32,000 bases of DNA from Burkholderia guangdongensis (GTDB taxonomy: Bacteria; Pseudomonadota; Gammaproteobacteria; Burkholderiales; Burkholderiaceae), in assembly GCF_013403875.1 (NCBI RefSeq), contig NZ_JACBNX010000002.1, positions 157,889 through 189,888 of the forward strand. The letters are read 5' to 3'. Below the pieces are notes generated by a model, which was given only the letters and a program-made list of their open reading frames with translations, ran no database searches and was not told the origin of the DNA. Made by a program: the position numbers and the translations under genes. Position 1 is the first letter of the stretch, and every line of letters starts with the position of its first letter. Positions 5,501-18,952 of the stretch are shown here, one piece after another.

Positions 5501-5539
5501 CAGCATGGCTTTGACGATTACCGACGAGTGCATCAATTG
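5501..5539 (+). repeat. attL: left copy of the 39-bp direct repeat bounding the island
   Basis: cagcatggctttgaCgattaccgacgagtgcatcaattg matches 18682-18720 at every position except one (5515 C versus 18696 T). High-GC backbone lies to the left and lower-GC DNA to the right. Confidence 0.85.
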
Positions 5540-5613: not shown

Positions 5614-5632
5614 TGCAACACCTATGCAACAC
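5614..5632 (+). repeat. TGCAACAC-cta-TGCAACAC tandem motif (candidate arm-type integrase binding site, P' arm)
   Basis: The 17-bp tgcaacacctatgcaac is repeated exactly at 18566-18582. It lies 74 bp inside attL, just upstream of the integrase start. Confidence 0.5.
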
Positions 5633-5644
5633 TGGGAGCAAAGC

Positions 5645-6631
5645 ATGGCCACATTCAGTCAGCGTAATAACCGTTGGCAAGTCAAAGTAACTCGCAAGGG
5701 ATTTCCTACGCAGTACAAATCGTTTTCGACAAAGGCGGAAGGTCAGGTTTGGGCGCGCTCCGTCGAAACTATGATGGATGATGGAACGTGGGTCGATCCG
5801 GCCGGCACGACCGACATAACATTCGGAAAGCTGCTGGAGCGCTACAAAGAGTCGGTTACGCAGACAAAGCGCAGCCGACGCAGTGAGGAATACCGTATCG
5901 GCAAAATGATGCGACACAAGATCGCCGAGTACAGTATGTGCAACCTCACGACCAGCGTGCTTGCGGATTATCGAGATCAACGTCTTAAGGTAGCGACCAA
6001 CTCATGCGTCTGTCGAGAACTCGCGACAATCAGCGCCGTTATCACGCATGCTCAGCGCGAATGGGGGCTTAGCATAACGAATCCGGCGAAGCTTGTGAAA
6101 CGGCCTAGATTGCCGCCCGGTCGAAATCGTATGCTGAAACCGGCCGAGGTTGATCGTCTATTGCATGAACTCAACGCAGAGCGTCACGAGTTGCGGAGCA
6201 AGTGGCTGGTTCCGCTCGTTAGGCTTGCGCTTGAGACTGCTATGCGACAGGGCGAATTGCTATCCCTGCTATGGAAGCACATTGATTTCGATGAGCGCAC
6301 GGCTTATTTGCCGATGACGAAAAACGGCAAGGATCGTTGTGTTCCGCTGAGTAGCGCGGCGCTTGCGATTCTGGAAAGTTTGGAGCGAGTTGACGAGCGC
6401 GTCATCCCGATTAGCCAGAACATCGTTTTGTGCGCATGGCCGCGCGCATGCAAGCGTGCCCGGATCGAAGACTTTCGCTTTCACGATTTGCGGCACATGG
6501 CGACAACCAGTCTCGCGAAGAGGTTGCCAAACGTGATTGAACTCGCATCGGTAACAGGACATAGCAACGTTCAGATGCTGAAGCGTTACTATCACACGTC
6601 GGCCAGCGAACTGGCGAAAAAGCTGGGCTGA
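5645..6631 (+). CDS. int: tyrosine-type site-specific integrase with N-terminal arm-binding-like domain
   Basis: ORF 5624..6631. ATG 5645 has a gggag SD 6 nt upstream. The N-terminus (RNNRWQVKVTRKGFP..KSFSTKAEGQVWARSVE) is arm-domain-like. The catalytic residues appear as ALETAMRQGE (R), HDLRH (H-x-x-R) and GHSNVQMLKRYYH (H...Y). Confidence 0.9.
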   Translation: MATFSQRNNRWQVKVTRKGFPTQYKSFSTKAEGQVWARSVETMMDDGTWVDPAGTTDITFGKLLERYKESVTQTKRSRRSEEYRIGKMMRHKIAEYSMCNLTTSVLADYRDQRLKVATNSCVCRELATISAVITHAQREWGLSITNPAKLVKRPRLPPGRNRMLKPAEVDRLLHELNAERHELRSKWLVPLVRLALETAMRQGELLSLLWKHIDFDERTAYLPMTKNGKDRCVPLSSAALAILESLERVDERVIPISQNIVLCAWPRACKRARIEDFRFHDLRHMATTSLAKRLPNVIELASVTGHSNVQMLKRYYHTSASELAKKLG

Positions 6632-6773
6632 GCCCAGATAACCTCATGTATACCGTACACACGGGAATCACGAAAAACGGACGTCTTTGAAATTGGCCTC
6701 TCTGTGACGACGTGCGAAAGAGGCCAAGACCTGCAAACGTCGGTCCAACCGACTTTTCTGCTGCGAATATTGG

Positions 6774-7028
6774 TCAGATCGGCTTGGCGTTGAGGTCGGA
6801 AAGCTGCTTTTGCAACTTCCGGATTCGGTGCGTGATGTCCGCTCGCTTGGCTGTGGTTGTCTGGCGTTTGGCCGCTTGCTTTTGTGCATCGATGCGCTGC
6901 TTCTCAAGGTCAGCGACTTCATGTAGACCAACGTGGGTCAGGATTTCATGGTATCTCATGGGCATTGCCTCTATCGTTGTGTACAGATATTTATGTGCGG
7001 ATAGAGACAGCGACTCGCTGAATTTCAA
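6774..7028 (-). CDS. small coiled-coil hypothetical protein (start uncertain; ATGs at 6965 and 6959 are alternatives to the TTG at 7028)
   Basis: It lies immediately downstream of, and overlaps by 4 nt, the T5orf172-like gene on the same strand. The C-terminal half is charged and heptad-like (LEKQRIDAQKQAAKRQ...RIRKLQKQLSDL). I recognise no family. Confidence 0.4.
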   Translation of the reverse strand: MKFSESLSLSAHKYLYTTIEAMPMRYHEILTHVGLHEVADLEKQRIDAQKQAAKRQTTTAKRADITHRIRKLQKQLSDLNAKPI

Positions 7029-7660
7029 TCAACTGTTGAGTCACCGTATTGCTCTTCTTCCATGCGGCGGCGACGCTCACCTAACGTTTCCCCTTCATAC
7101 ATCCAGTAACCCGGTCCACTTGCTGCTGGAGTGGTGTAGCCCTTGGATTGAAGCGCCTTCAATGCTGCAGCGGAAAGGCTCATTACTTCGCCCTTATAGC
7201 TCACGCGGCCACTGTCAACGACGGTACAGGTGATTGCTTCGTCGCGTGACAGCGTGAGTTCCGCGCCAGGCTTGACTCCCACTGCGTCCAGGTTGAACTT
7301 GGAGCGACGTGCCTTTGCCTTATCCAGAGCTTGCAGTTCTTCCGAATCGATATCGGTGTAGCCAGGCGTGACCTCTCTGAAATTGCCGATGCTGATTGCC
7401 AGCACGACTTTCTCGGGATCGATCTTGAAGAATTCTCGTCTGGGATTGATCCGAGTATCAGCAAATAACTGATGCAGGGCCTTTTCGAGCTTCGAGCAAT
7501 CTTCAACCTCCGCAGCGAAGTAGCACTCGAACGGGAGGGGAACGCCAGTAGCCAAGCTAAGCTGGCTGATGCGAGATTCCACGCTATCGCCATTGGTCAT
7601 CCCAATCTTGACGATATTCGGCATGGCCTCGTTGGTCAGGACATAGATAATCTGCGCCAT
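7025..7660 (-). CDS. T5orf172 / GIY-YIG-like nuclease-domain protein
   Basis: The N-terminus IIYVLTNEAMPNIVKIGMTNGDSVESRISQL...LEKALHQLFADTRINPRREFFKI fits the T5orf172 (MUG113, GIY-YIG-related) pattern. The C-terminal part (..VMSLSAAALKAL..G..GYWMYEG) resembles the C-terminal extensions seen with such domains. Confidence 0.7.
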   Translation of the reverse strand: MAQIIYVLTNEAMPNIVKIGMTNGDSVESRISQLSLATGVPLPFECYFAAEVEDCSKLEKALHQLFADTRINPRREFFKIDPEKVVLAISIGNFREVTPGYTDIDSEELQALDKAKARRSKFNLDAVGVKPGAELTLSRDEAITCTVVDSGRVSYKGEVMSLSAAALKALQSKGYTTPAASGPGYWMYEGETLGERRRRMEEEQYGDSTVD

Positions 7661-7757
7661 TGTTGTATGTGGCTGATGGTCTAGCCACTAACAATATCAC
7701 GGCGCAGATGTGAGCGGCGCGTCCCGCATGCCTACGGCCCTACTGCCAGAGATCGGC

Positions 7758-8201
7758 TTACTTGGCGACGAAGCCCGAACGCATTTGACTACTGATGGCG
7801 TCGATCTGCGTATCGAGCTCGCCGGCCTCAACTGCTGCCTTGAGCGTCTCGAGCGTCGGGATCAGCTCGGCGAGCGTGCCGACTTCGATAGCCGTCTTGC
7901 CCTTTGCAAGCTCCAGCGTTTTTGTGCCATAGCGGACCGACATGCAGACTTTGCCGCTTTCGGCGGTCCACCACCACGCACGAACGCGCTTCTGTACTTC
8001 CACGTTGCGGCGCTCGCCGGTTTCTGCATTCTTCACCGAACGGAACTTCGTAGGTGAGAACGTCGTTCCCGCTTGCTGAGCCTTCGCGAGTTCCGTTTGC
8101 TCCCAGATCTTCGCGATCAAACGGTTACGACGTTGCACGATTTGCGGCATCGAACCGGGACGCTTGGCAGCGACGAGCTTTAGATTGGTGAGCGTGCTCA
8201 T
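7758..8201 (-). CDS. conserved-looking hypothetical protein (147 aa)
   Basis: The ATG has a good aggag SD 6 nt upstream, and the sequence is non-repetitive (..RVRAWWWTAESGKVCMSVRYGTKTLELAKGKTAIEV..). It looks like an island- or prophage-associated family of unknown function, but I cannot name it reliably. Confidence 0.55.
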   Translation of the reverse strand: MSTLTNLKLVAAKRPGSMPQIVQRRNRLIAKIWEQTELAKAQQAGTTFSPTKFRSVKNAETGERRNVEVQKRVRAWWWTAESGKVCMSVRYGTKTLELAKGKTAIEVGTLAELIPTLETLKAAVEAGELDTQIDAISSQMRSGFVAK

Positions 8202-8313
8202 ATTGGACTCCTGAGTTATGTGGTGGAGTGAGGATGTAGCCGCTTACGGCTGAAATCAACAGGATTTTTTACGCTATATCGAGCGCTTCGTCGTGGTCTT
8301 GCTAAATAAGGCT

Positions 8314-8814
8314 ATGGAAAAGAACATAAACATAAAAGTAGCGACACGGGACTGGATGATTCAGTACGCGCCATATTTAACGCATGCTGTAACGCTCACC
8401 ATGAAGCCGTATCGTGAAATCATGACCAACAAGGGACTGACTACACAGCGCTTGACAGAGATCGAAGCGAAAGAGAATTTCCGACAGTTCATTCGACGCC
8501 TGAACGCAGCTGTATATGGAAATGCAGCCAAGCGATTCGGTACGAGTGTCTATGTAATTCCTGTTATCGAAGGCATCGTAACGGACAAGCTTCTGCACTA
8601 TCACTGCATGATGGGGAATTTTCGAGGCGGAGTCGATGAGGCATTGATCGCTAGTGCGATTCGAGCCGCATGGCTTCAAACGGATTTCGGCAACTTTGAG
8701 GTCGACATCAAGCCTCTGACATCGGACGGCTGGATCGACTACATCCTCAAGGAAGTCGGCATAGGCGACGCCGACAACGTGGACTACGGAAACGTCCACG
8801 TACCAAAGGACTAA
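8314..8814 (+). CDS. small HUH-motif protein (rolling-circle Rep-like or Y1 transposase/RAYT-like)
   Basis: The ORF track starts at GTG 8293; the first ATG is 8314. Three motifs occur in the order and spacing typical of HUH endonucleases: HAVTLTM (beta-strand, FLTLT-like), VIPVIEG...LLHYHCMM (HUH) and WIDYILKE (catalytic Tyr, YxxK). The functional call is by motif only. Confidence 0.5.
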   Translation: MEKNINIKVATRDWMIQYAPYLTHAVTLTMKPYREIMTNKGLTTQRLTEIEAKENFRQFIRRLNAAVYGNAAKRFGTSVYVIPVIEGIVTDKLLHYHCMMGNFRGGVDEALIASAIRAAWLQTDFGNFEVDIKPLTSDGWIDYILKEVGIGDADNVDYGNVHVPKD

Positions 8815-9198: not shown

Positions 9199-9215
9199 TG
9201 TCGGTTTAACCGACA
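9199..9215. repeat. palindromic element copy 1 (TGTCGGTT-T-AACCGACA)
   Basis: A perfect 8-1-8 palindrome in the long non-coding stretch ~160 bp upstream of the short recombinase gene. Confidence 0.8.
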
Positions 9216-9378
9216 TCTCCCATCAGCAGCAAGCTAAAACCAAATGAAATAGCAAAAACATTTGGTTATCACGTAGGTGCTTGATTTCTCTGGCCTCTGC
9301 CCGATGTCATTTGGTTGTTGATCCGTATAACTAAAGAATACATCCTCTGGACATGAATTCTCTTTGTTCGGAGGGGAA

Positions 9379-9945
9379 ATGAAGCAGGCCAAGACATTCA
9401 CTGAAAAGGAACTCAAGCAGGTACTGACCTACATCTCGATGCGTCGGCATGTGCTGCGCAATCGGGCGATGGTGCTGCTGACGCATTGGGCCGGTATGCG
9501 TGTCGGCGAAGTAGCCGCATTGCTTGTTGGGGACGTGCTCAACGCAGATGGCTCGATCAAGTCGGAAATTCGACTTGCTCCTGAGCAGACCAAGGGACGT
9601 CACGCACGCACGGTCTTTCTCGGGCAGAAGTTGCGACGCGAACTGGTTGCCTATGTCGCCTGCCTCAAGAATCCGCGACCGGAGCGCCCGCTGTTCTATA
9701 CGCAGAAGCGGGCTGGGTTCACTGCCAACACGCTATGTCAGTACTTCCATTGGCTGTACAAGGATGCGGGCATTCAGGGGGCGAGCAGCCATTCAGGCCG
9801 ACGCTCGTTTATCACGAATCTGGCGAACAAGGGCGTAGGTGTTCGCGTGCTGATGTCTCTTGCGGGGCATCGGGACATTTCGACTACGCAGCGGTACATC
9901 GATGTCAACGACGAGATGCAGCGCAAGGCCGTGGATCTCGTGTGA
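9379..9945 (+). CDS. short tyrosine recombinase (catalytic domain only, ~188 aa)
   Basis: ATG 9379 is preceded by ggagggg. The catalytic residues appear as WAGMRVGEV (R), K in EQTKGRHARTVFL, HSGRRSF (H-x-x-R) and GHRDISTTQRYI (H...Y). There is no N-terminal core- or arm-binding domain. Confidence 0.8.
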   Translation: MKQAKTFTEKELKQVLTYISMRRHVLRNRAMVLLTHWAGMRVGEVAALLVGDVLNADGSIKSEIRLAPEQTKGRHARTVFLGQKLRRELVAYVACLKNPRPERPLFYTQKRAGFTANTLCQYFHWLYKDAGIQGASSHSGRRSFITNLANKGVGVRVLMSLAGHRDISTTQRYIDVNDEMQRKAVDLV

Positions 9946-10187
9946 TGAGCCGATACAGTCCTGCCCAGATAGAAGCACGTCGGCAGCTTGCCTTGGCGTT
10001 CAGGCGCGAGAGCAGGCCAGACCTGACGCATGTATTGGGTAGAGGATGGTCGCTCGGTCAGGAGGTGCGCCGACTCGACGACCGGCAGTATTTCGAGAGG
10101 GCCGTTCAGTTATTCAACCGGCGCATTGGCATTGCGAGGTTTGCGCCGTTGAACAAGGAGGACCTGTTCAGAGCAGCAGGCGTTTAG
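9945..10187 (+). CDS. hypothetical 80-aa protein, translationally coupled to the short recombinase
   Basis: Its ATG overlaps the recombinase stop (TGATG at 9943-9947). It is on the same strand with no gap. I recognise no family. Confidence 0.5.
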   Translation: MSRYSPAQIEARRQLALAFRRESRPDLTHVLGRGWSLGQEVRRLDDRQYFERAVQLFNRRIGIARFAPLNKEDLFRAAGV

Positions 10188-10209: not shown

Positions 10210-10413
10210 ATGGCAATTTGTCCCGGTCGTATCCAGAATTACGCAGGTCAGCACAGCGGAAACGTCTACCGCTGCACCAAGTGCGGGGCCGTTGGCTGCA
10301 AGGATCATCGTTGCACGAACCGCAACTGGAGCAATGGCGGCGGTTGCTTGCATTGCGGTAGTCACGGAGCGATGAAATCCTTGTGGTTTCATCCCTCGGT
10401 CCAAGACGAATAG
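10210..10413 (+). CDS. Cys-rich mini-protein, paralog 1 (67 aa, 7 Cys, two CxxCG knuckles)
   Basis: MAICPGRIQNYAGQHSGNVYRCTKCGAVGCKDHRCTNRNWSNGGGCLHCGSHG... About 44 of 56 aligned residues are identical to the ORF at 12892..13068, and all 7 Cys are conserved. The DNA differs largely at synonymous positions, which supports real coding. Confidence 0.65.
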   Translation: MAICPGRIQNYAGQHSGNVYRCTKCGAVGCKDHRCTNRNWSNGGGCLHCGSHGAMKSLWFHPSVQDE

Positions 10414-10428
10414 TCTTGTAGCTATCCG

Positions 10429-10451
10429 AATTGTCGTTTTAACAGACAATT
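10429..10451. repeat. palindromic element copy 2 (AATTGTCgTTTTAACaGACAATT)
   Basis: It starts 16 nt after the stop of Cys-rich paralog 1. The outer 7-bp arms are perfect and there are two inner mismatches. Confidence 0.7.
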
Positions 10452-11737: not shown

Positions 11738-11754
11738 TGTCGGTTAGACCGGCA
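11738..11754. repeat. degenerate fifth copy of the palindromic element (TGTCGGTTaGACCGgCA)
   Basis: It matches the element consensus at about 14 of 18 positions. It lies between the convergent stops of the porin and MarR-like genes. Confidence 0.4.
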
Positions 11755-12823: not shown

Positions 12824-12852
12824 CCGGATTGTCAGTTTAACCGACAATCCGG
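12824..12852. repeat. palindromic element copy 3 (CCGGATTGTCaGTT-T-AACCGACAATCCGG)
   Basis: A 14-1-14 palindrome with one mismatch, between the convergent stops of the membrane protein gene (12769) and Cys-rich paralog 2 (12892). Confidence 0.8.
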
Positions 12853-12891
12853 GATTGTTTGATGTCTTTTGTATCGGATGGCAAAGCGAAA

Positions 12892-13068
12892 CTACACGAC
12901 TTTCATGGTACCGTGACTGCCGCAGCGTAGGCAGCCGCCGCTCTGACTCCAATTATGATTCGAGCATCGGTGATCTTTGCAGCCGACCGCGCCACATTTG
13001 GTACAACGGTAGACGTTCGACGCATGCTGGCCGGGATGATTGGGGATGCGGCCGGGACAAAGAGCCAT
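12892..13068 (-). CDS. Cys-rich mini-protein, paralog 2 (58 aa)
   Basis: The ATG (comp. 13066-13068) is preceded by ggag at a 6-nt spacing; the track start at 13080 is a TTG. MALCPGRIPNHPGQHASNVYRCTKCGAVGCKDHRCSNHNWSQSGGCLRCGSHGTMKVV is paralogous to 10210..10413. Confidence 0.65.
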   Translation of the reverse strand: MALCPGRIPNHPGQHASNVYRCTKCGAVGCKDHRCSNHNWSQSGGCLRCGSHGTMKVV

Positions 13069-13379: not shown

Positions 13380-15038
13380 CTACTGGAAGTTGGGTCGTCT
13401 ATTCTCGGTAAACCACGCTTTACTTGCTGCATACATATTGATCACCTCCGGATCCTTTTCCTCCGATAATTTTGAGGTGATAAAGTTGAGGGTTCTTTGC
13501 TTGTCGCTCGAGAACTGATATGCCAACCACATGGCCTCCAAGGCTTGATCTGGTCGGTGTTCTTTCGCGATCGTTACAGCTAAAGGTGCCCAAACGCTGG
13601 TTCGCCTTGGATTGAGAGTCAGCGCCAGTACGGCGGTGTCCTCGGATTTTGCGAGTTGTCCGTCAGCGGCGTAAGCATAAGACAGGTTGCTTACAATCTC
13701 CACGTCACCAGGGTCGGTCTGATTTGCTTGGGTGAGCAATTTGACTGCATCGTCCGGTCTTGAATCCTTTAGCGCGTTCAAGGCATCTACATTGAATTTT
13801 CGTGCGACTGCCTTGTCGCCGCGAGTCGGTTTGGAGAGAGAGTCAATAGTGTTCGCTGCCTGCATGGCTCCCGCGAGATTTTCCGACTTGGCGAAGGCCA
13901 GCATGGTCTTGGCGCAATCAACTGCGGTCGCGCACGTAGCAGTCTGATCTGTAGTGGCCACCTGCGTTGCTGTCGCCGATGGAGGCAAGGAGGGCGCGAT
14001 TGATGATGTTGTGACGCCATTGCTTGTAGGTAAGGGGGCGGCATCGTGCGACGCGGTGCTGGCTGGTGTGATGGTGGCGGTACCTGCTGACGGCACGCCA
14101 CTCGACTTGACCTCCGCCGGTGCGGTCGCCGCGGCGGTTGTCTCGGAATTAGTGGTTGGCGCACTGGTAGCGGTTGCGGAAGCGGACGCGCGCGGCGGGA
14201 ATGTGTCCGTCGACGCAACAATAAACTTCGTGGCAGGCTCCTCAGTCGAGGACTCCGACGTCCAGCTACCTCCCGCGCTGTGTTGCAAGTATCGTGAGAC
14301 TGAACCGTTTGCCATAATGTAATTACACTCTTTGTCTATTACGTTATGAAATTGGTCAACATAGTGGTAGTCAATAGTCGGGCCTGACGGCGGAAATCGT
14401 CTGAACTCGGTGAGCGTGGCGTATGGCCGGTCCATCGGCCAATATGCATGTTCCAGGCAGTCATCTTTATAAATTTCGTTTTCTTTTGCGATTCGAGCGG
14501 ATGTGGCAGCGCTGTTTTCAACGTGATATATCTTCGCATCTCGGACGTGCCACTGAAAGCTGTTTTCGAAGAACCCAGGCTCGTCCAAAACTCCGGAAAA
14601 TGTCACCTCTGTACTGTCGGGGGCAGATTTGTATGGTGTTGGGTCTATCCCTTTAAGCTCAAGTTTCTCACCTTGTGGAGTCTCAACTATCAAGAACTTA
14701 TTTTGTGTGTCAACTATATCGGCATGCCAAAAAATATGCTTTCCTTGGAATTTGCTGTGATCGAGCAGCGTTGAAGTGAACTCCTCCTGTGAGATCTCAC
14801 TTTTTGGTATTTCTTCAATAGGTGTATCGCGTGATCGGCGATTTGAACTGTGAAATGTTGCGCCTATAATCGGGCTCAATATGAATACGCCAATGAAAAT
14901 TAGGTAAAGCTTGCGACCTACTGGCGTAAGGTGAGAGCTTATGTTGCGTATTGAGAAACCATTCCAGTAGCTAATATTGGGTGATCGAAAGCAGGCAATT
15001 ACAATAAGCATTCCTATGAGTCCGAGCGCGGAGATCAT
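13380..15038 (-). CDS. membrane-anchored protein with Ser/Thr/Ala/Pro-rich linker and C-terminal TPR-like repeats (552 aa)
   Basis: The ATG has an aagga SD. There are two N-terminal TM segments, a globular middle region, a low-complexity region of over 100 aa (ASASATATSAPTTNSETTAAATAPA...) and C-terminal TPR-like helices (..AVKLLTQANQTDPGDVEIVSNLSYAYAADGQLAKSEDTAVLALTLNP..). Confidence 0.7.
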   Translation of the reverse strand: MISALGLIGMLIVIACFRSPNISYWNGFSIRNISSHLTPVGRKLYLIFIGVFILSPIIGATFHSSNRRSRDTPIEEIPKSEISQEEFTSTLLDHSKFQGKHIFWHADIVDTQNKFLIVETPQGEKLELKGIDPTPYKSAPDSTEVTFSGVLDEPGFFENSFQWHVRDAKIYHVENSAATSARIAKENEIYKDDCLEHAYWPMDRPYATLTEFRRFPPSGPTIDYHYVDQFHNVIDKECNYIMANGSVSRYLQHSAGGSWTSESSTEEPATKFIVASTDTFPPRASASATATSAPTTNSETTAAATAPAEVKSSGVPSAGTATITPASTASHDAAPLPTSNGVTTSSIAPSLPPSATATQVATTDQTATCATAVDCAKTMLAFAKSENLAGAMQAANTIDSLSKPTRGDKAVARKFNVDALNALKDSRPDDAVKLLTQANQTDPGDVEIVSNLSYAYAADGQLAKSEDTAVLALTLNPRRTSVWAPLAVTIAKEHRPDQALEAMWLAYQFSSDKQRTLNFITSKLSEEKDPEVINMYAASKAWFTENRRPNFQ

Positions 15039-15160: not shown

Positions 15161-15811
15161 TCAAAGTTTGCGTGGCGTGCGGCAATGACTGCGATCAGAT
15201 AACCGCTCGTACAAGTAGGGCCAATCGACCGCAAGCAAAGGTATGGTCCGGTCGTTTCGGGATCGGTATGCGAAGAATCGTATCCAGCCATCCAGAAAGA
15301 TGCTTTTGCCTGGACTGAGCAAGCACGGTGGCCTATCAACAAGTGGAATCGTCACAGGTGGGAATAGTGCAGCGACCTTCTCAAGCGCGTGTGACGCGTT
15401 CCTTTCCGTCTGAAGATTGCTTGCTCCGCTAAGCAGATAGCGTTGCACGGCTTCTTCGACACTGAGCGTATCGAGTTCGACGTAAGACGCACGAACTCCG
15501 CCGAGAGCGGATTGACATGTGGATCTCGTATCAGAGTGTCCCGCCATCCGACTTAGCACGGAAAGCTGGACGTAAGAAGGCAGGGAGCCAAAGTCCGTCT
15601 CGCCACATTGCAGCGTGTCTCGAAACGTGGGGTAGGCTAGGAGCCATGCGCTGATTCTGGCATGGCCTGGATGAGACCGATCGGCCGGACATGCCGGCAG
15701 GTCTGGCTGATGCGCGCGCATGGCTTCCCCGTAATTGTTATAAAAACTATAACGCCGTGCGGCGCCGCGCGCAAGACTGCAATGCACCGGCAGGCTCGCT
15801 TGCTTGCGCAC
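15161..15811 (-). CDS. hypothetical protein (weak call; GTG start at 15811, alternative ATG at 15721)
   Basis: This is the longest ORF in the segment and shares the strand of the upstream ATPase cassette. I recognise no motifs, and there are overlapping ORFs on the other strand. It could be a pseudogene or non-coding. Confidence 0.3.
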   Translation of the reverse strand: MRKQASLPVHCSLARGAARRYSFYNNYGEAMRAHQPDLPACPADRSHPGHARISAWLLAYPTFRDTLQCGETDFGSLPSYVQLSVLSRMAGHSDTRSTCQSALGGVRASYVELDTLSVEEAVQRYLLSGASNLQTERNASHALEKVAALFPPVTIPLVDRPPCLLSPGKSIFLDGWIRFFAYRSRNDRTIPLLAVDWPYLYERLSDRSHCRTPRKL

Positions 15812-15835
15812 GCCGACGGGGTGAATGATTGGCGG

Positions 15836-15856
15836 AACGTAGGTGACACCTACGTT
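15836..15856. repeat. perfect 21-bp palindrome AACGTAGGTG-A-CACCTACGTT
   Basis: A 10-1-10 perfect inverted repeat in the 109-bp gap between the ATPase gene stop (15921) and ORF 15161..15811. No T-tract follows on either strand. Confidence 0.75.
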
Positions 15857-15920
15857 TGGCAGGTTCCGAGCGACCCGCCCGAACGGTGGAACTGCCCGGG
15901 ACGGGTGCGGATTTGCTTGC

Positions 15921-16604
15921 TTACGGCTGGTAGGCGATGGCCCGAAGCTGAGCGCTGTTGTTCAGTTGATAGGCGACGTCCTGACTATTATCGAGAATTT
16001 CGCGGGGATTATTGCCCTTGGCGATAATACGGTTTCGAATGAACTTGTCGCTAATACTTCCGGCATTCGGAACGCCTGCTTCTGTAAGGGCAGTTCGTGC
16101 GAGCGGGATCCAAACATCCATATTGGACGGCTGAAATGAGATGCACTTGCTCCGCGACACCACACCGGGATCGATTCTGTCGATGTGGTTTGTGGTCATG
16201 ATGAAAACCGCATTGAATATGCTGGCGCCGTAAGTCTGGTTCATCACACTTTTCAGCTGTCTCATCGCGACAGGCGTGAGGTTGTCGGCCTCGTCAAGAA
16301 TAATGTAGTGGAACGTGCCGCTCAAGGTAGCATAGCTGATCTGAGTGTGGATCGAATTAATCAGCGCAACATCGTTATTGCCGGACATGCAGTCTTCGTA
16401 ACGGATGTTTGGCATATCGGACGAGTACTTTACTTCTATGCCTACCGGCAGAAGTTTTGCACAGGTCGTCTTTCCGGTTCCATATGGACCATACAGGATG
16501 ATGCCGTTAGTTCCATTTGCCGGAAACACGTAACACGGTTCAATGAGGCGCTTGATTGACGACTCGGTATTCGCTGAAGGAAAGGTCAGGTTGTTGATGA
16601 TCAT
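15921..16604 (-). CDS. truncated clamp-loader-like (RFC small subunit / T4 gp44-like) AAA+ ATPase, 227 aa
   Basis: Motifs: Walker A GIILYGPYGTGKTTCAK; Walker B HYIILDEADNLT; sensor-1 FIMTTN; and the SRC-like motif DPGVVSRSKCISF. Order and spacing match the clamp-loader ATPase module, but the C-terminal collar domain appears to be missing. Confidence 0.75.
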   Translation of the reverse strand: MIINNLTFPSANTESSIKRLIEPCYVFPANGTNGIILYGPYGTGKTTCAKLLPVGIEVKYSSDMPNIRYEDCMSGNNDVALINSIHTQISYATLSGTFHYIILDEADNLTPVAMRQLKSVMNQTYGASIFNAVFIMTTNHIDRIDPGVVSRSKCISFQPSNMDVWIPLARTALTEAGVPNAGSISDKFIRNRIIAKGNNPREILDNSQDVAYQLNNSAQLRAIAYQP

Positions 16605-16658
16605 GATAAGTTATCCTATATAAATGGGCGTCTAGGCCTTCCCAAACACCCGCATTGA

Positions 16659-17426
16659 TTAGTTGATGCTCAGGTTTTCGTCCGATTCAGCAGATGCGTT
16701 GGCCGATTGGGGCTGATTCGCATAGGCCGCGTACGCTCGGGTGAGTACACCTTGGTCATTAACGATCGCCCGGATAGAGACGCTGCCGTCTGGATGACAC
16801 GTGACAATCGCCGTGCGTTCGCGATCTACCTCAACGGGCGGCAAGGCATCCTCAAGCTCCTGCGAATCGACCGTGCAGAGGATGTTTGTCCCGATTCGTC
16901 TGCGACCTCGTTCGGCAAGAATTGACTGGGAGACCGGACTCTTTGCGGGGCGGGGATTGCCTTTGGCATCGTAGGTTTTCCTTACCTTCTCGATACCGCC
17001 TTCATTTTCAAGCCAGGCGCAGAATGAGTTTTCGGTCTGGCCCATCACATCAGCGGTTGTTAGCACGAGGGCATAACCGGCAGCAAGCTGCCGGTTATCG
17101 CTTACGATCAGCTTGGCCATCATAGTCAGAACACTCGTTTCCGATGTGACTCGAATTTTTTCCTGCTCGCACTTGGCTTCGAGAAATTGCTTGCTTTCGA
17201 CGCGCGCCGCATTCGGAGAATTTTTGTAGTCGCTCTGATACAGGCCGAGAATCTTGGCGAGCACTTCCCAAAGGAAAACTCTGGAGCGGGTGTGCTCGTC
17301 TTTTAGCTTGAAAACCCTGTCGAGAAAGAATGATGCGGGCGAGATATCGATTTTTCGCTGAACCGAATCGATGGGTGACGGTGTGGCAGTTTCGAAATCG
17401 ATTTCGGTGGATAGTGCTTGAACCAT
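16659..17426 (-). CDS. hypothetical protein (255 aa), upstream partner of the AAA+ ATPase
   Basis: The ATG has an aggag SD at 8 nt. It lies 54 bp upstream of the ATPase gene on the same strand. The N-terminal half looks helical. I recognise no family. Confidence 0.6.
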   Translation of the reverse strand: MVQALSTEIDFETATPSPIDSVQRKIDISPASFFLDRVFKLKDEHTRSRVFLWEVLAKILGLYQSDYKNSPNAARVESKQFLEAKCEQEKIRVTSETSVLTMMAKLIVSDNRQLAAGYALVLTTADVMGQTENSFCAWLENEGGIEKVRKTYDAKGNPRPAKSPVSQSILAERGRRRIGTNILCTVDSQELEDALPPVEVDRERTAIVTCHPDGSVSIRAIVNDQGVLTRAYAAYANQPQSANASAESDENLSIN

Positions 17427-17523
17427 GAAAATGCTCCTGTAAAGTTGAGGAAATCGCCGATCAGTGAATCGACGAAACGAACTTTATTTCGGAGCGATTT
17501 TCAGAAATATCCCACGCGCTACG

Positions 17524-18198
17524 TCACGTACGCCGTTTGCCCGCAAGCGGCTCATTTTTTCGAGCAAACGTCATACCGTCCAGCCACTTGGTGATGGTGC
17601 GCTCGGCCTGAGCTTCCGATAGATTGACGCCTTGCGCTTGCGATTCCCTGAGAATCTGGACTTTGATCGACAAAGCCGCATTTCGCTTGCTGGGATAGTT
17701 GCCCGATGCAGCCAGTTCACGCGCAAGTCGGCGCAATGGTTCATATTTTGCGTTGCGCTCTGTGGAGCCGGATTTGCTACGTGCAGAGATGACACCGGCT
17801 AGCGCTGGTTCCAGAGCGAATACGCCCTCAGCGAAACCTAGAAGGTATTGGGCGTTAGCGATGTGGGACCATCCCACGCTTTCGTGGCCTTCTTCGCTGG
17901 CGTTTCCAGCGTCGATCACATGAGCGCAGGCATGGCAGATCGCCCGCATGTAAATCACAAACGAATGCTGGGTGTGGTTCTTGAACGCGGGAACTTCGAT
18001 CCGCGCAGGACTCTGAGCCGACGACTGCGCTATGGGCACGAGGATCTCGCTTTCGAAGTCCTCGGCCGACTTGTCTGGGTTCATCACAATGTAGAGCCGG
18101 AACAACGCTTTGATGATCGCGTCGGCGGCCACGTCGATCGAATCGAAGGTGGGAAGGGGTTCCCCGATTTTTCTGGATTGGGTGTGGATGTCGGTCAT
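17524..18198 (-). CDS. hypothetical protein (224 aa), first gene of the minus-strand cassette
   Basis: ORF 17524..18303 has a TTG start; I trimmed it to the first ATG at 18198 (MTDIHTQSRK...). The C-terminal ..KRNAALSIKVQILRESQAQGVNLSEAQAERTITKWL may be a helix-turn-helix. I recognise no family. Confidence 0.5.
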   Translation of the reverse strand: MTDIHTQSRKIGEPLPTFDSIDVAADAIIKALFRLYIVMNPDKSAEDFESEILVPIAQSSAQSPARIEVPAFKNHTQHSFVIYMRAICHACAHVIDAGNASEEGHESVGWSHIANAQYLLGFAEGVFALEPALAGVISARSKSGSTERNAKYEPLRRLARELAASGNYPSKRNAALSIKVQILRESQAQGVNLSEAQAERTITKWLDGMTFARKNEPLAGKRRT

Positions 18199-18346
18199 GT
18201 ACGTGTGTTGGTAAGGCCCGTGCGGAGTTGAGCATTGCGACCGTGCCAATGGTGGCGCTTTGGCGCGTTGTCTAGCGTTGCACTTGCTTCGGCTGCAAAC
18301 CAACGCAGCTAGACGCTTGGTGGTTCTTCTGGCGAGCCGTAGCGCA

Positions 18347-18369
18347 AATTGTCGGTGTAACCGACAGTT
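18347..18369. repeat. palindromic element copy 4 (AATTGTCGGTgTAACCGACAgTT)
   Basis: It lies ~150 bp upstream of the 224-aa gene start, near the right end of the island. Confidence 0.75.
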
Positions 18370-18400: not shown

Positions 18401-18646
<246 letters not shown>

Positions 18647-18647
18647 C

Positions 18648-18952
<305 letters not shown>

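Follow-up and report, generated by a model that had tools for sequence, protein, structure and literature searches.

A stretch of 32,000 nucleotides (nt) from Burkholderia guangdongensis (contig NZ_JACBNX010000002.1, positions 157,889 to 189,888), here called the window, carries three adjacent minus-strand genes, gA, gB and gC, which constitute a widely conserved and previously undescribed module: an AAA+ ATPase of the clamp-loader clade (gC) accompanied by an obligate partner that matches no known fold (gB) and by a variable third gene (gA in the window). Clamp-loader ATPases are pentameric machines held together by their collars; in the conserved gC family the collar has been lost and all catalytic residues have been kept, which points to a different assembly or use of the clamp-loader motor. 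The tentative reading of the gB-gC pair is a DNA-handling accessory that is driven by ATP and linked to the island. In addition, the module is a marker of a hitherto undescribed family of integrative islands with a miniature recombinase, signature palindromes and swappable cargo (e.g., SIR2-HerA and restriction systems). The following features of the module and its downstream flank are referred to below (aa, amino acids; ORF, open reading frame):

17524-18198, minus strand: gA, 224 aa (WP_179401219.1), the variable upstream member
16659-17426, minus strand: gB, 255 aa, with AGGAG 8 nt upstream of the start
16626-16651, minus strand: hairpin within the 54-nt gB-gC spacer, an 11-bp stem followed by ATTTAT
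15921-16604, minus strand: gC, 227 aa, an AAA+ ATPase of the RFC/gp44 clade with base and lid only
15836-15856: perfect 10+10 palindrome AACGTAGGTGACACCTACGTT, 65 nt past the gC stop (0 expected by chance)
15751-15766, minus strand: terminator-like hairpin followed by a T-run, ~155 nt past the gC stop
15161-15811, minus strand: gD, a fourth ORF, here regarded as non-coding sequence past gC and not as a gene

The collarless ATPase and its partners

An earlier note on the window, written by a model from the sequence alone, had described gC as a stand-alone clamp-loader-like ATPase, and this description holds. The Walker A (GPYGTGKTT), Walker B (IILDEAD), sensor-1 (TTN) and VSRSKCISF motifs that it listed are all found in gC, which also has an RFC-box N-terminus and an S-R-x arginine-finger helix; together with sensor 2, the protein carries the full set of AAA+ clamp-loader motifs, including the SRC-type arginine finger. 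Among 26 gC relatives, K45, E105, T137/T138/N139, R151 and R201 are invariant. D104 and E105 (Walker B) are invariant or nearly so, R151 is the arginine finger and R201 is the sensor-2 residue of the lid. The best profile matches of gC are the clamp loader phrog_168 (E 1.3e-17) and the RFC small subunit (E 7.6e-11), and the best PDB sequence matches are RFC3, RFC5 and T4 gp44. Some of its relatives are labelled 'RarA' or 'delta prime' by the Joint Genome Institute (JGI).

An hhalign comparison of gC with 40 phage gp44-like proteins (probability 99.9%, E 3e-36, gC residues 5-218) reaches only the base and lid of gp44, in agreement with the earlier observation that the protein stops right after the lid. 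The description of gC as truncated is correct as far as the missing collar is concerned, but not as to its cause: all gC relatives are 208-266 aa long, compared with 311-382 aa in phage gp44-like proteins, and the absence of the collar is therefore a family trait rather than a truncation. The collar (domain III) has no counterpart after residue 227, where gC ends, and nothing collar-like was detected by hhalign in gA or gB. The curated cut-offs for clamp-loader families are not reached by gC (41.6 vs 303 bits for the RFC small subunit, 37.8 vs 250 for dnaX_nterm, and 24.3 vs 27 for DNA_pol3_delta2), and neither a sliding clamp nor another loader subunit (gp62, delta) is encoded in any of more than 50 neighborhoods. 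Comparison with helicase loaders of the DnaC/IstB type gave no convincing match (phrog_50, E 0.025; phrog_3277, E 0.38).

Wherever upstream sequence is available, gC is immediately preceded by gB, which amounts to 46 distinct pairs; the sole exception to the association is a truncated gC remnant in one related locus, L042. The pairs are found in Burkholderia, Paraburkholderia, Limnohabitans, Polaromonas, Rhodoferax, Polynucleobacter, Propionivibrio, Noviherbaspirillum and a few Sphingomonadaceae, so the genes co-occur far outside this strain, contrary to the restriction to one strain that would have spoken against the earlier note. Of the conserved set of three to four genes envisaged earlier, the universal part is gB-gC, while gA is mostly replaced by a different gene, C4, and gD is absent.

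The gB-gC spacer has a median length of 62 nt (17-90 nt in 45 of 47 pairs), and translational coupling was rejected, as the genes overlap in only one of the 47 pairs. Of 44 distinct spacers, 40 contain a strong hairpin of 8-15 bp, which begins ~10-20 nt past the gB stop and has a mean z of -3.4. The hairpin of the window has a folding energy of -18.8 kcal/mol (z = -3.6 against dinucleotide-preserving shuffles), and 12 diverse spacers gave z values from -2.1 to -6.3 in the same comparison, with control values of -0.33 inside gC and -1.79 after the gC stop. The hairpin sequences vary between lineages, and T-runs follow several of them. Probably, the element acts as an attenuator or stabilizes the mRNA, which would give more gB than gC.

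According to its AlphaFold2 model (predicted local distance difference test score, pLDDT, 74 overall and ~90 for residues 50-160), gB is predicted to consist of a helical N-domain (~residues 30-151) and a small α/β C-domain (~167-236), flanked by disordered termini. The model has no fold match in the PDB (best E 2.0) or among the BFVD viral models (best E 0.32). The gA model (pLDDT 92) is all-helical, contains a 60-residue helix and has no match among PDB folds either (best E 1.3). Neither protein has a match in Pfam, NCBIfam, PADLOC or PHROGs, and profile searches of both against PDB sequences found nothing; the earlier statement that the partners of the ATPase belong to no recognizable family thus withstood both the family searches and the fold comparison. 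It was likewise correct in that no effector motif is evident: none is conserved in gA or gB, nor is any catalytic residue. The invariant residues of gB (Y118, V121, A125, G144 and G214) are structural rather than catalytic. As a gp62-like subunit, gB was rejected (hhalign probability 0.1-0.2%), and neither gA nor gB qualified as such a subunit or as the provider of a collar in trans (less than 1%).

The two domains of gB differ in their distribution. The presence of the C-domain is associated with that of gC (46/5/0/7, Fisher p 2.6e-6; among the five discordant cases, two arise from coordinate artefacts), and some islands encode a gB-like protein with the N-domain only and no gC. As the C-domain tracks gC, it is likely the domain that docks the ATPase. 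Genes for gB-like proteins that are not followed by an ATPase gene were observed in L176 (11637-12677), L182 (1890-2897), L131 (933-2234) and L134 (11448-12941); they occupy the slot between C4 (or gA) and the integrase, and their products retain the N-terminal helical domain and differ in their C-terminal parts.

The third gene is variable. gA precedes gB-gC in the window and in L001, L004, L006, L014, L126 and L132, an arrangement limited to the Burkholderia/Paraburkholderia lineage and a second lineage (L126 and L132), and in L130 and L131 it accompanies a gB-like gene in the absence of gC. Elsewhere, C4 stands in its place, a gene on the opposite strand that encodes ~300 aa, matches no family and proved unrelated to gA on comparison. 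The gA family has 194 representatives. Pfam gave no match for 55 gA relatives and nothing informative for the gC-less gB variants, C4, C6 and C7, and the same was true of NCBIfam and PHROGs for the backbone genes of the islands. Distant gA relatives adjoin AlpA and DUF3987 primases in other islands that lack gB-gC; gA is therefore a general island gene. In L127 (163-2275), a phage- or satellite-like contig, two tandem gA-family paralogs (356 and 312 aa) were observed directly upstream of an AlpA-type gene. E. coli YfjH, which has the same position beside alpA, was considered as a gA relative and gave no match.

The earlier note had described a cassette of four genes. Four minus-strand ORFs of 224, 255, 227 and 216 aa (186 aa if translation starts at the ATG at 15721) are indeed present, with gaps of 97, 54 and 109 bp, but only gA, gB and gC are real genes. 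They are 100% identical to annotated B. guangdongensis proteins, and their in-frame codon scores of 0.27-0.32 (0.27 for gA), with clearly discriminated frames, fall within the range of well-supported genes (0.18-0.42). By contrast, gD has a codon score of -0.006, and its three frames barely differ. Neither its 216-aa nor its 186-aa version is present in the protein collection, unlike gA, gB and gC; it has no homolog in sister islands, where an unrelated gene of 141-148 aa is found instead; and the terminator-like hairpin (15766-15751) lies inside the ORF. Of the strong AGGAG-type Shine-Dalgarno sequences reported for two ORFs, only that of gB is exact; gC has AGGA, and gA has no Shine-Dalgarno sequence. 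Rfam revealed no known RNA anywhere on the island, the gD stretch included, and a promoter scan returned fewer matches than in shuffled sequence. The palindrome AACGTAGGTGACACCTACGTT past gC occurs as a single copy in the window, and its sequence is unrelated to the family palindrome described below.

The island family and its signature palindromes

The 13.2-kb island is inserted at the 5′ end of the ferredoxin (fdx) gene. The following features define it:

5501-5539: attL, left copy of a 39-bp direct repeat, paired with attR
5624-6631: tyrosine integrase, within the island
18682-18720: attR, right copy of the direct repeat, overlapping the start of the ferredoxin gene (18686-18952)

A drop in guanine-plus-cytosine (GC) content from ~69% to ~52% (at ~5.5-18.7 kb, compared with 66-72% in the host), the flanking direct repeats and the tyrosine integrase identify the stretch as an integrative island, as the earlier note had claimed. 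The same fdx-side insertion site is used by homologous islands in B. multivorans ATCC 17616, B. gladioli and a Paraburkholderia. The island does not resemble satellites of the P4 or CP4-57 type: it has an integrase, but neither DUF3987, AlpA nor a capsid-redirecting gene was found in the window or in the canonical loci of the family; satellites of this kind contain only distant gA relatives.

The island family was surveyed by neighborhood clustering and by 80 metagenome loci sampled through sInt, a small tyrosine recombinase. In the canonical order, DUF6641 is followed by the Rep-like C7, sInt (~190 aa), C4 (opposite strand), gB and gC, and the series closes with C2, a large integrase that matches the XerD model (E 1.9e-5) and whose profile is matched by IntA (E 2e-12). 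The family was previously undescribed and is common in freshwater and soil Betaproteobacteria. Literature searches found no description of the module, DUF6641 or the island family, and nothing relevant on clamp-loader-like island or defense ATPases or on Burkholderia satellites. The recombinase and the palindromes of the window are located as follows:

9364-9945, plus strand: sInt, 193-aa tyrosine recombinase, catalytic domain only (Pfam Phage_integrase, E 9e-27)
9199-9215: palindrome S1, flanking sInt
10432-10448: palindrome S2, flanking sInt
11738-11754: palindrome copy within the island
12830-12846: palindrome S4, TGTCAGTTTAACCGACA, far boundary of the block with the tetratricopeptide-repeat (TPR) gene and gC-gB-gA
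18350-18366: palindrome S5, TGTCGGTGTAACCGACA, fdx-side boundary of this block, 152 nt upstream of the gA start

The catalytic residues of sInt (R, H-x-x-R, H and Y) are invariant, and the protein has at least 578 metagenome matches. In the islands of B. multivorans and B. gladioli, sInt is 91% identical, compared with 25-57% for the other genes; gA is only 25-29% identical between islands with 91% identical sInt. A conserved 80-aa ORF (9945-10187, plus strand; codon score 0.03) directly follows sInt in the window.

Across 24 loci carrying all five genes, the distances between gC proteins correlate with those of gB (rho 0.75), sInt (0.51, by a Mantel test) and C4 (0.50), each at p = 5e-4, but not with those of the large integrase C2 (0.03). 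Thus, sInt, C4, gB and gC are inherited as a block, from which the exchange of the large integrase is independent. At 24-28% identity, the most distant gC relative is still accompanied by C4, gB, sInt and DUF6641. Outside the family, tblastn searches with gA, gB and gC against 72,556 plasmid records gave no match, nor did gA against 50,697 phage records, where gB and gC were not searched; a true relative (gB-gC) was found in one IMG/VR contig only.

Within the family, the module is variably present. Among 47 informative sInt loci, 16 carry gB and gC, 13 have a gB-like gene but gave no sign of gC, and 18 (~40%) have neither gene; six of the 13 had room for gC, to which L176 and L182, where C2 closes the island, can be added. 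In module-less islands, the slot is taken by an outer-membrane protein barrel, an autotransporter, a glycoside hydrolase or a methylase. Defense genes are part of the cargo: SIR2-HerA (E 4e-75 and 4e-159) and a type III restriction-modification system lie beside gB-gC in sister islands (L004 10623-13630 and L011 1190-5933), and the window encodes a defense candidate of 211 aa (7025-7660, minus strand), a T5orf172/MUG113 protein of the GIY-YIG type (PADLOC PDC-S57, E 9e-76).

The islands are further characterized by a 17-bp palindrome, TGTCG-N7-CGACA, with 110 copies in 1.18 Mb of related loci compared with 1.35 in shuffled sequences (found in L001, L011, L016, L017, L138, L175, L195, L205, L206 and others). 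It is located 2-10 nt past the sInt stop, in the divergent region between C4 and gB, and 7-60 nt past the gC stop, as well as beside DUF6641 and C2. All five copies of the window are inside the island (10 strand matches vs 0.04 expected), where they delimit four blocks: sInt with the 80-aa ORF; a porin; a MarR-like gene with a MASE1 gene; and the TPR gene through gC-gB-gA. The palindrome may be a recombination site or an operator. Its 5-bp inverted arms and 7-bp AT-rich spacer would fit a tyrosine-recombinase core site, and an operator would be equally possible.

The last of these blocks occurs in both orientations relative to sInt. A palindrome equivalent to S5 is present upstream of gA in L001, and S5 adjoins the breakpoint of a rearrangement in L006, the inversion of gA-gB-gC. 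In this locus, from Paraburkholderia sp. USG1 (6067-8814), gA-gB-gC is inverted relative to the ferredoxin gene, and the 93 bp found before gA in the window (18253-18345) lie after gC. In addition, a 130-nt inverted repeat (10261-10390 and 12888-13017; 75% complementary) flanks a 2.5-kb segment beside sInt that contains the porin, the MarR-like gene and the MASE1 membrane protein; the same repeat is present in sister islands, and the segment may be invertible.

Possible functions of the module

The tentatively preferred reading, an island-linked DNA-handling accessory, would make gB and gC a two-protein ATP-driven machine, encoded within an inherited backbone block with sInt and a regulator-like upstream gene (mostly C4, gA in the window). 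In this machine, gB would serve as an adaptor whose conserved helical N-domain carries the island-specific function and whose α/β C-domain docks gC, and the hairpin between the genes would keep gB in excess. Since an arginine finger acts across subunits, gC would have to oligomerize for ATP hydrolysis by non-collar means, and its assembly might depend on gB, DNA or the target protein. The task could be a transaction of island DNA, i.e., helping recombination at the family palindromes, or, alternatively, the handling of a host ring protein (the β clamp or DnaB) on the excised element. A gB-gC complex, its DNA or replisome target and its role in the life cycle of the island are all inferred.

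Several observations favor this reading: the association with sInt persists across very deep divergence, gB-gC is confined to a single island family, gC is of clamp-loader ancestry, its nearest relatives being clamp loaders of DNA replication, and an effector motif is lacking. The constant pairing of gB with gC, the C-domain that tracks the ATPase, the structural nature of the invariant gB residues, and a block bracketed by family palindromes and found in both orientations relative to sInt count for it as well. The earlier note had left room for an island replication or maintenance module; as gB-gC is confined to one island family and co-diverges with sInt, the evidence leans towards such a maintenance or DNA-transaction module.

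Other observations weigh against it. Close linkage of the genes might by itself account for the co-divergence. Searches of gA, gB and C4 revealed no DNA-binding, nuclease, primase or helicase domain, and no iterons or origin were found near gA-gB-gC, only short two-copy matches. As 18 of the 47 islands lack gB and 13 have no detected gC, the module is dispensable for the island, and a swap with alternative replication genes was rejected, the slot holding ordinary cargo instead. Four points speak for a somewhat less likely alternative, a conflict cassette that is directed against phages or other elements and travels as island cargo: islands of the family can do without the module; the palindromes around it are those that also surround other cargo blocks (the porin and MarR-MASE1); the SIR2-HerA and type III systems adjoin it in sister islands, with the PDC-S57 candidate in the window; and gA and gB diverge fast. 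Besides, an ATPase with fold-orphan partners is a common layout of defense systems. In such a cassette, gA or C4 and gB would sense the invader, and the ATPase would interfere with replication, e.g., by sequestering or mis-handling the clamp or a phage clamp loader. The matches of gC to PADLOC models are weak, however, and remain at the level of the P-loop (TRIP13, E 4e-4; IetA, E 4e-3), and gA and gB contain neither an effector domain nor conserved catalytic residues. Moreover, the cassette was not seen outside one island family within the plasmid (three proteins), phage (gA only) and IMG/VR searches, the last with its one contig, and it co-diverges with sInt down to ~25% identity, unlike freely exchanged cargo. 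The defense role suggested by the earlier note is a possibility to which the defense cargo beside the module and its optional presence point, and which no PADLOC model or effector motif backs. Either outcome would be useful, as the module would represent a new DNA-transaction accessory of mobile elements or a new defense mechanism aimed at replication. A copy is carried by B. multivorans ATCC 17616 (island at CP000868, 548-565 kb), which is genetically manipulable.

A bolder and unlikely version of the DNA-handling accessory is that gB-gC serves an undescribed cassette-shuffling platform. The ~190-aa recombinase would act at the 17-bp TGTCG-N7-CGACA sites that delimit the defense, porin and regulator blocks, and the collarless ATPase with its novel-fold adaptor would remodel or activate the recombination complex, as FtsK activates XerD. 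If true, tyrosine recombinases would have a new kind of AAA+ partner, and Burkholderiales would possess an integron-like system.

Quite improbable is an addiction or stabilization system of the toxin-antitoxin kind, in which gC would be a harmful rogue ATPase checked by excess gB. From the gene order and the hairpin, gB is predicted to be made in excess over the ATPase encoded after it, the C-domain of gB tracks gC as expected of a neutralizing domain, the termini of gB are disordered, and gB-like genes persist without gC, whereas intact gC never occurs without gB. However, an antitoxin of the size of gB would be large, and conservation in gB is highest in the N-domain, also in islands that lack gC. 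Spacers of ~60 nt with terminator-like hairpins are atypical of type II toxin-antitoxin operons, and no toxin of the AAA+ clamp-loader type is known.

Finally, a decaying remnant of phage replication genes (a truncated gp44-like pseudogene with debris), to which the phage clamp loaders among the nearest relatives of gC and its missing C-terminal third might point, is effectively refuted by the clear coding signal of gA, gB and gC, by relatives that are all equally short with invariant catalytic residues, and by 46 distinct gB-gC pairs kept across orders.

Known systems and neighboring features

T4 gp44/gp62, RFC small subunits and Pol III gamma-delta′ belong to the same AAA+ clade as gC. They differ from it in possessing a collar and in their greater length, and gC stays below their curated cut-offs; it has no clamp gene or other subunit beside it, its partner gB is unrelated to gp62 or a collar, and it is encoded on an integrative island beside recombinases. 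Hda and RarA/MgsA are small AAA+ proteins with a base and a lid whose targets are replication proteins, and they are not ring-forming clamp loaders; Hda belongs to the DnaA clade and has a clamp-binding motif, and RarA has a C-terminal tetramerization domain. In contrast, gC has neither this motif nor this domain and depends on a dedicated partner gene.

The initiator and loader pairs of phage and satellite replication (e.g., lambda O/P, or DnaD-like with DnaC/DnaI-like proteins) resemble gB-gC in that a family-less protein of ~250 aa is followed by an ATPase of ~230 aa near the integrase of a mobile element. However, gC is outside the DnaC/initiator clade, no origin-like iterons were found, and a substitute replication module is missing from islands that lack the pair. 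In the AAA+ systems of PADLOC (TRIP13 of CBASS and IetA), an ATPase with accessory genes is likewise encoded on mobile islands with defense cargo, whereas their similarity to gC is confined to the P-loop and the partners match no defense model: gA, gB and C4 have no match in PADLOC-DB 2.0, and the module does not correspond to a known defense system. Integrons, shufflons and pdif modules served by XerC/D are platforms that combine a recombinase with its sites. As in the island family, the recombinase lies beside many short palindromic sites that delimit blocks, and block order and orientation vary; the differences are that sInt has only ~190 aa and that the 17-bp sites are putative and could be operators.

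Further observations concern the surroundings of the module. Two backbone proteins are encoded upstream of sInt, a 173-aa protein (8293-8814, plus strand) with an HYH motif and a weak match to an inovirus-type Rep (PF23343, E 0.004), and a DUF6641 protein (7758-8201, minus strand; phrog_31551, E 2e-26). The TPR protein of 552 aa (13380-15038, minus strand) is 71% identical in its C-terminal third to a 491-aa B. multivorans protein encoded at the same place, and the N-terminal parts of the two differ, which gives it the look of a mosaic cargo gene. At the end of the island, a 70-nt stretch (18434-18503) is an inverted copy (94%) of the ferredoxin 5′ coding region (18715-18784), and the segment 18430-18800 is ~93% conserved between sister islands, far above the adjacent genes.

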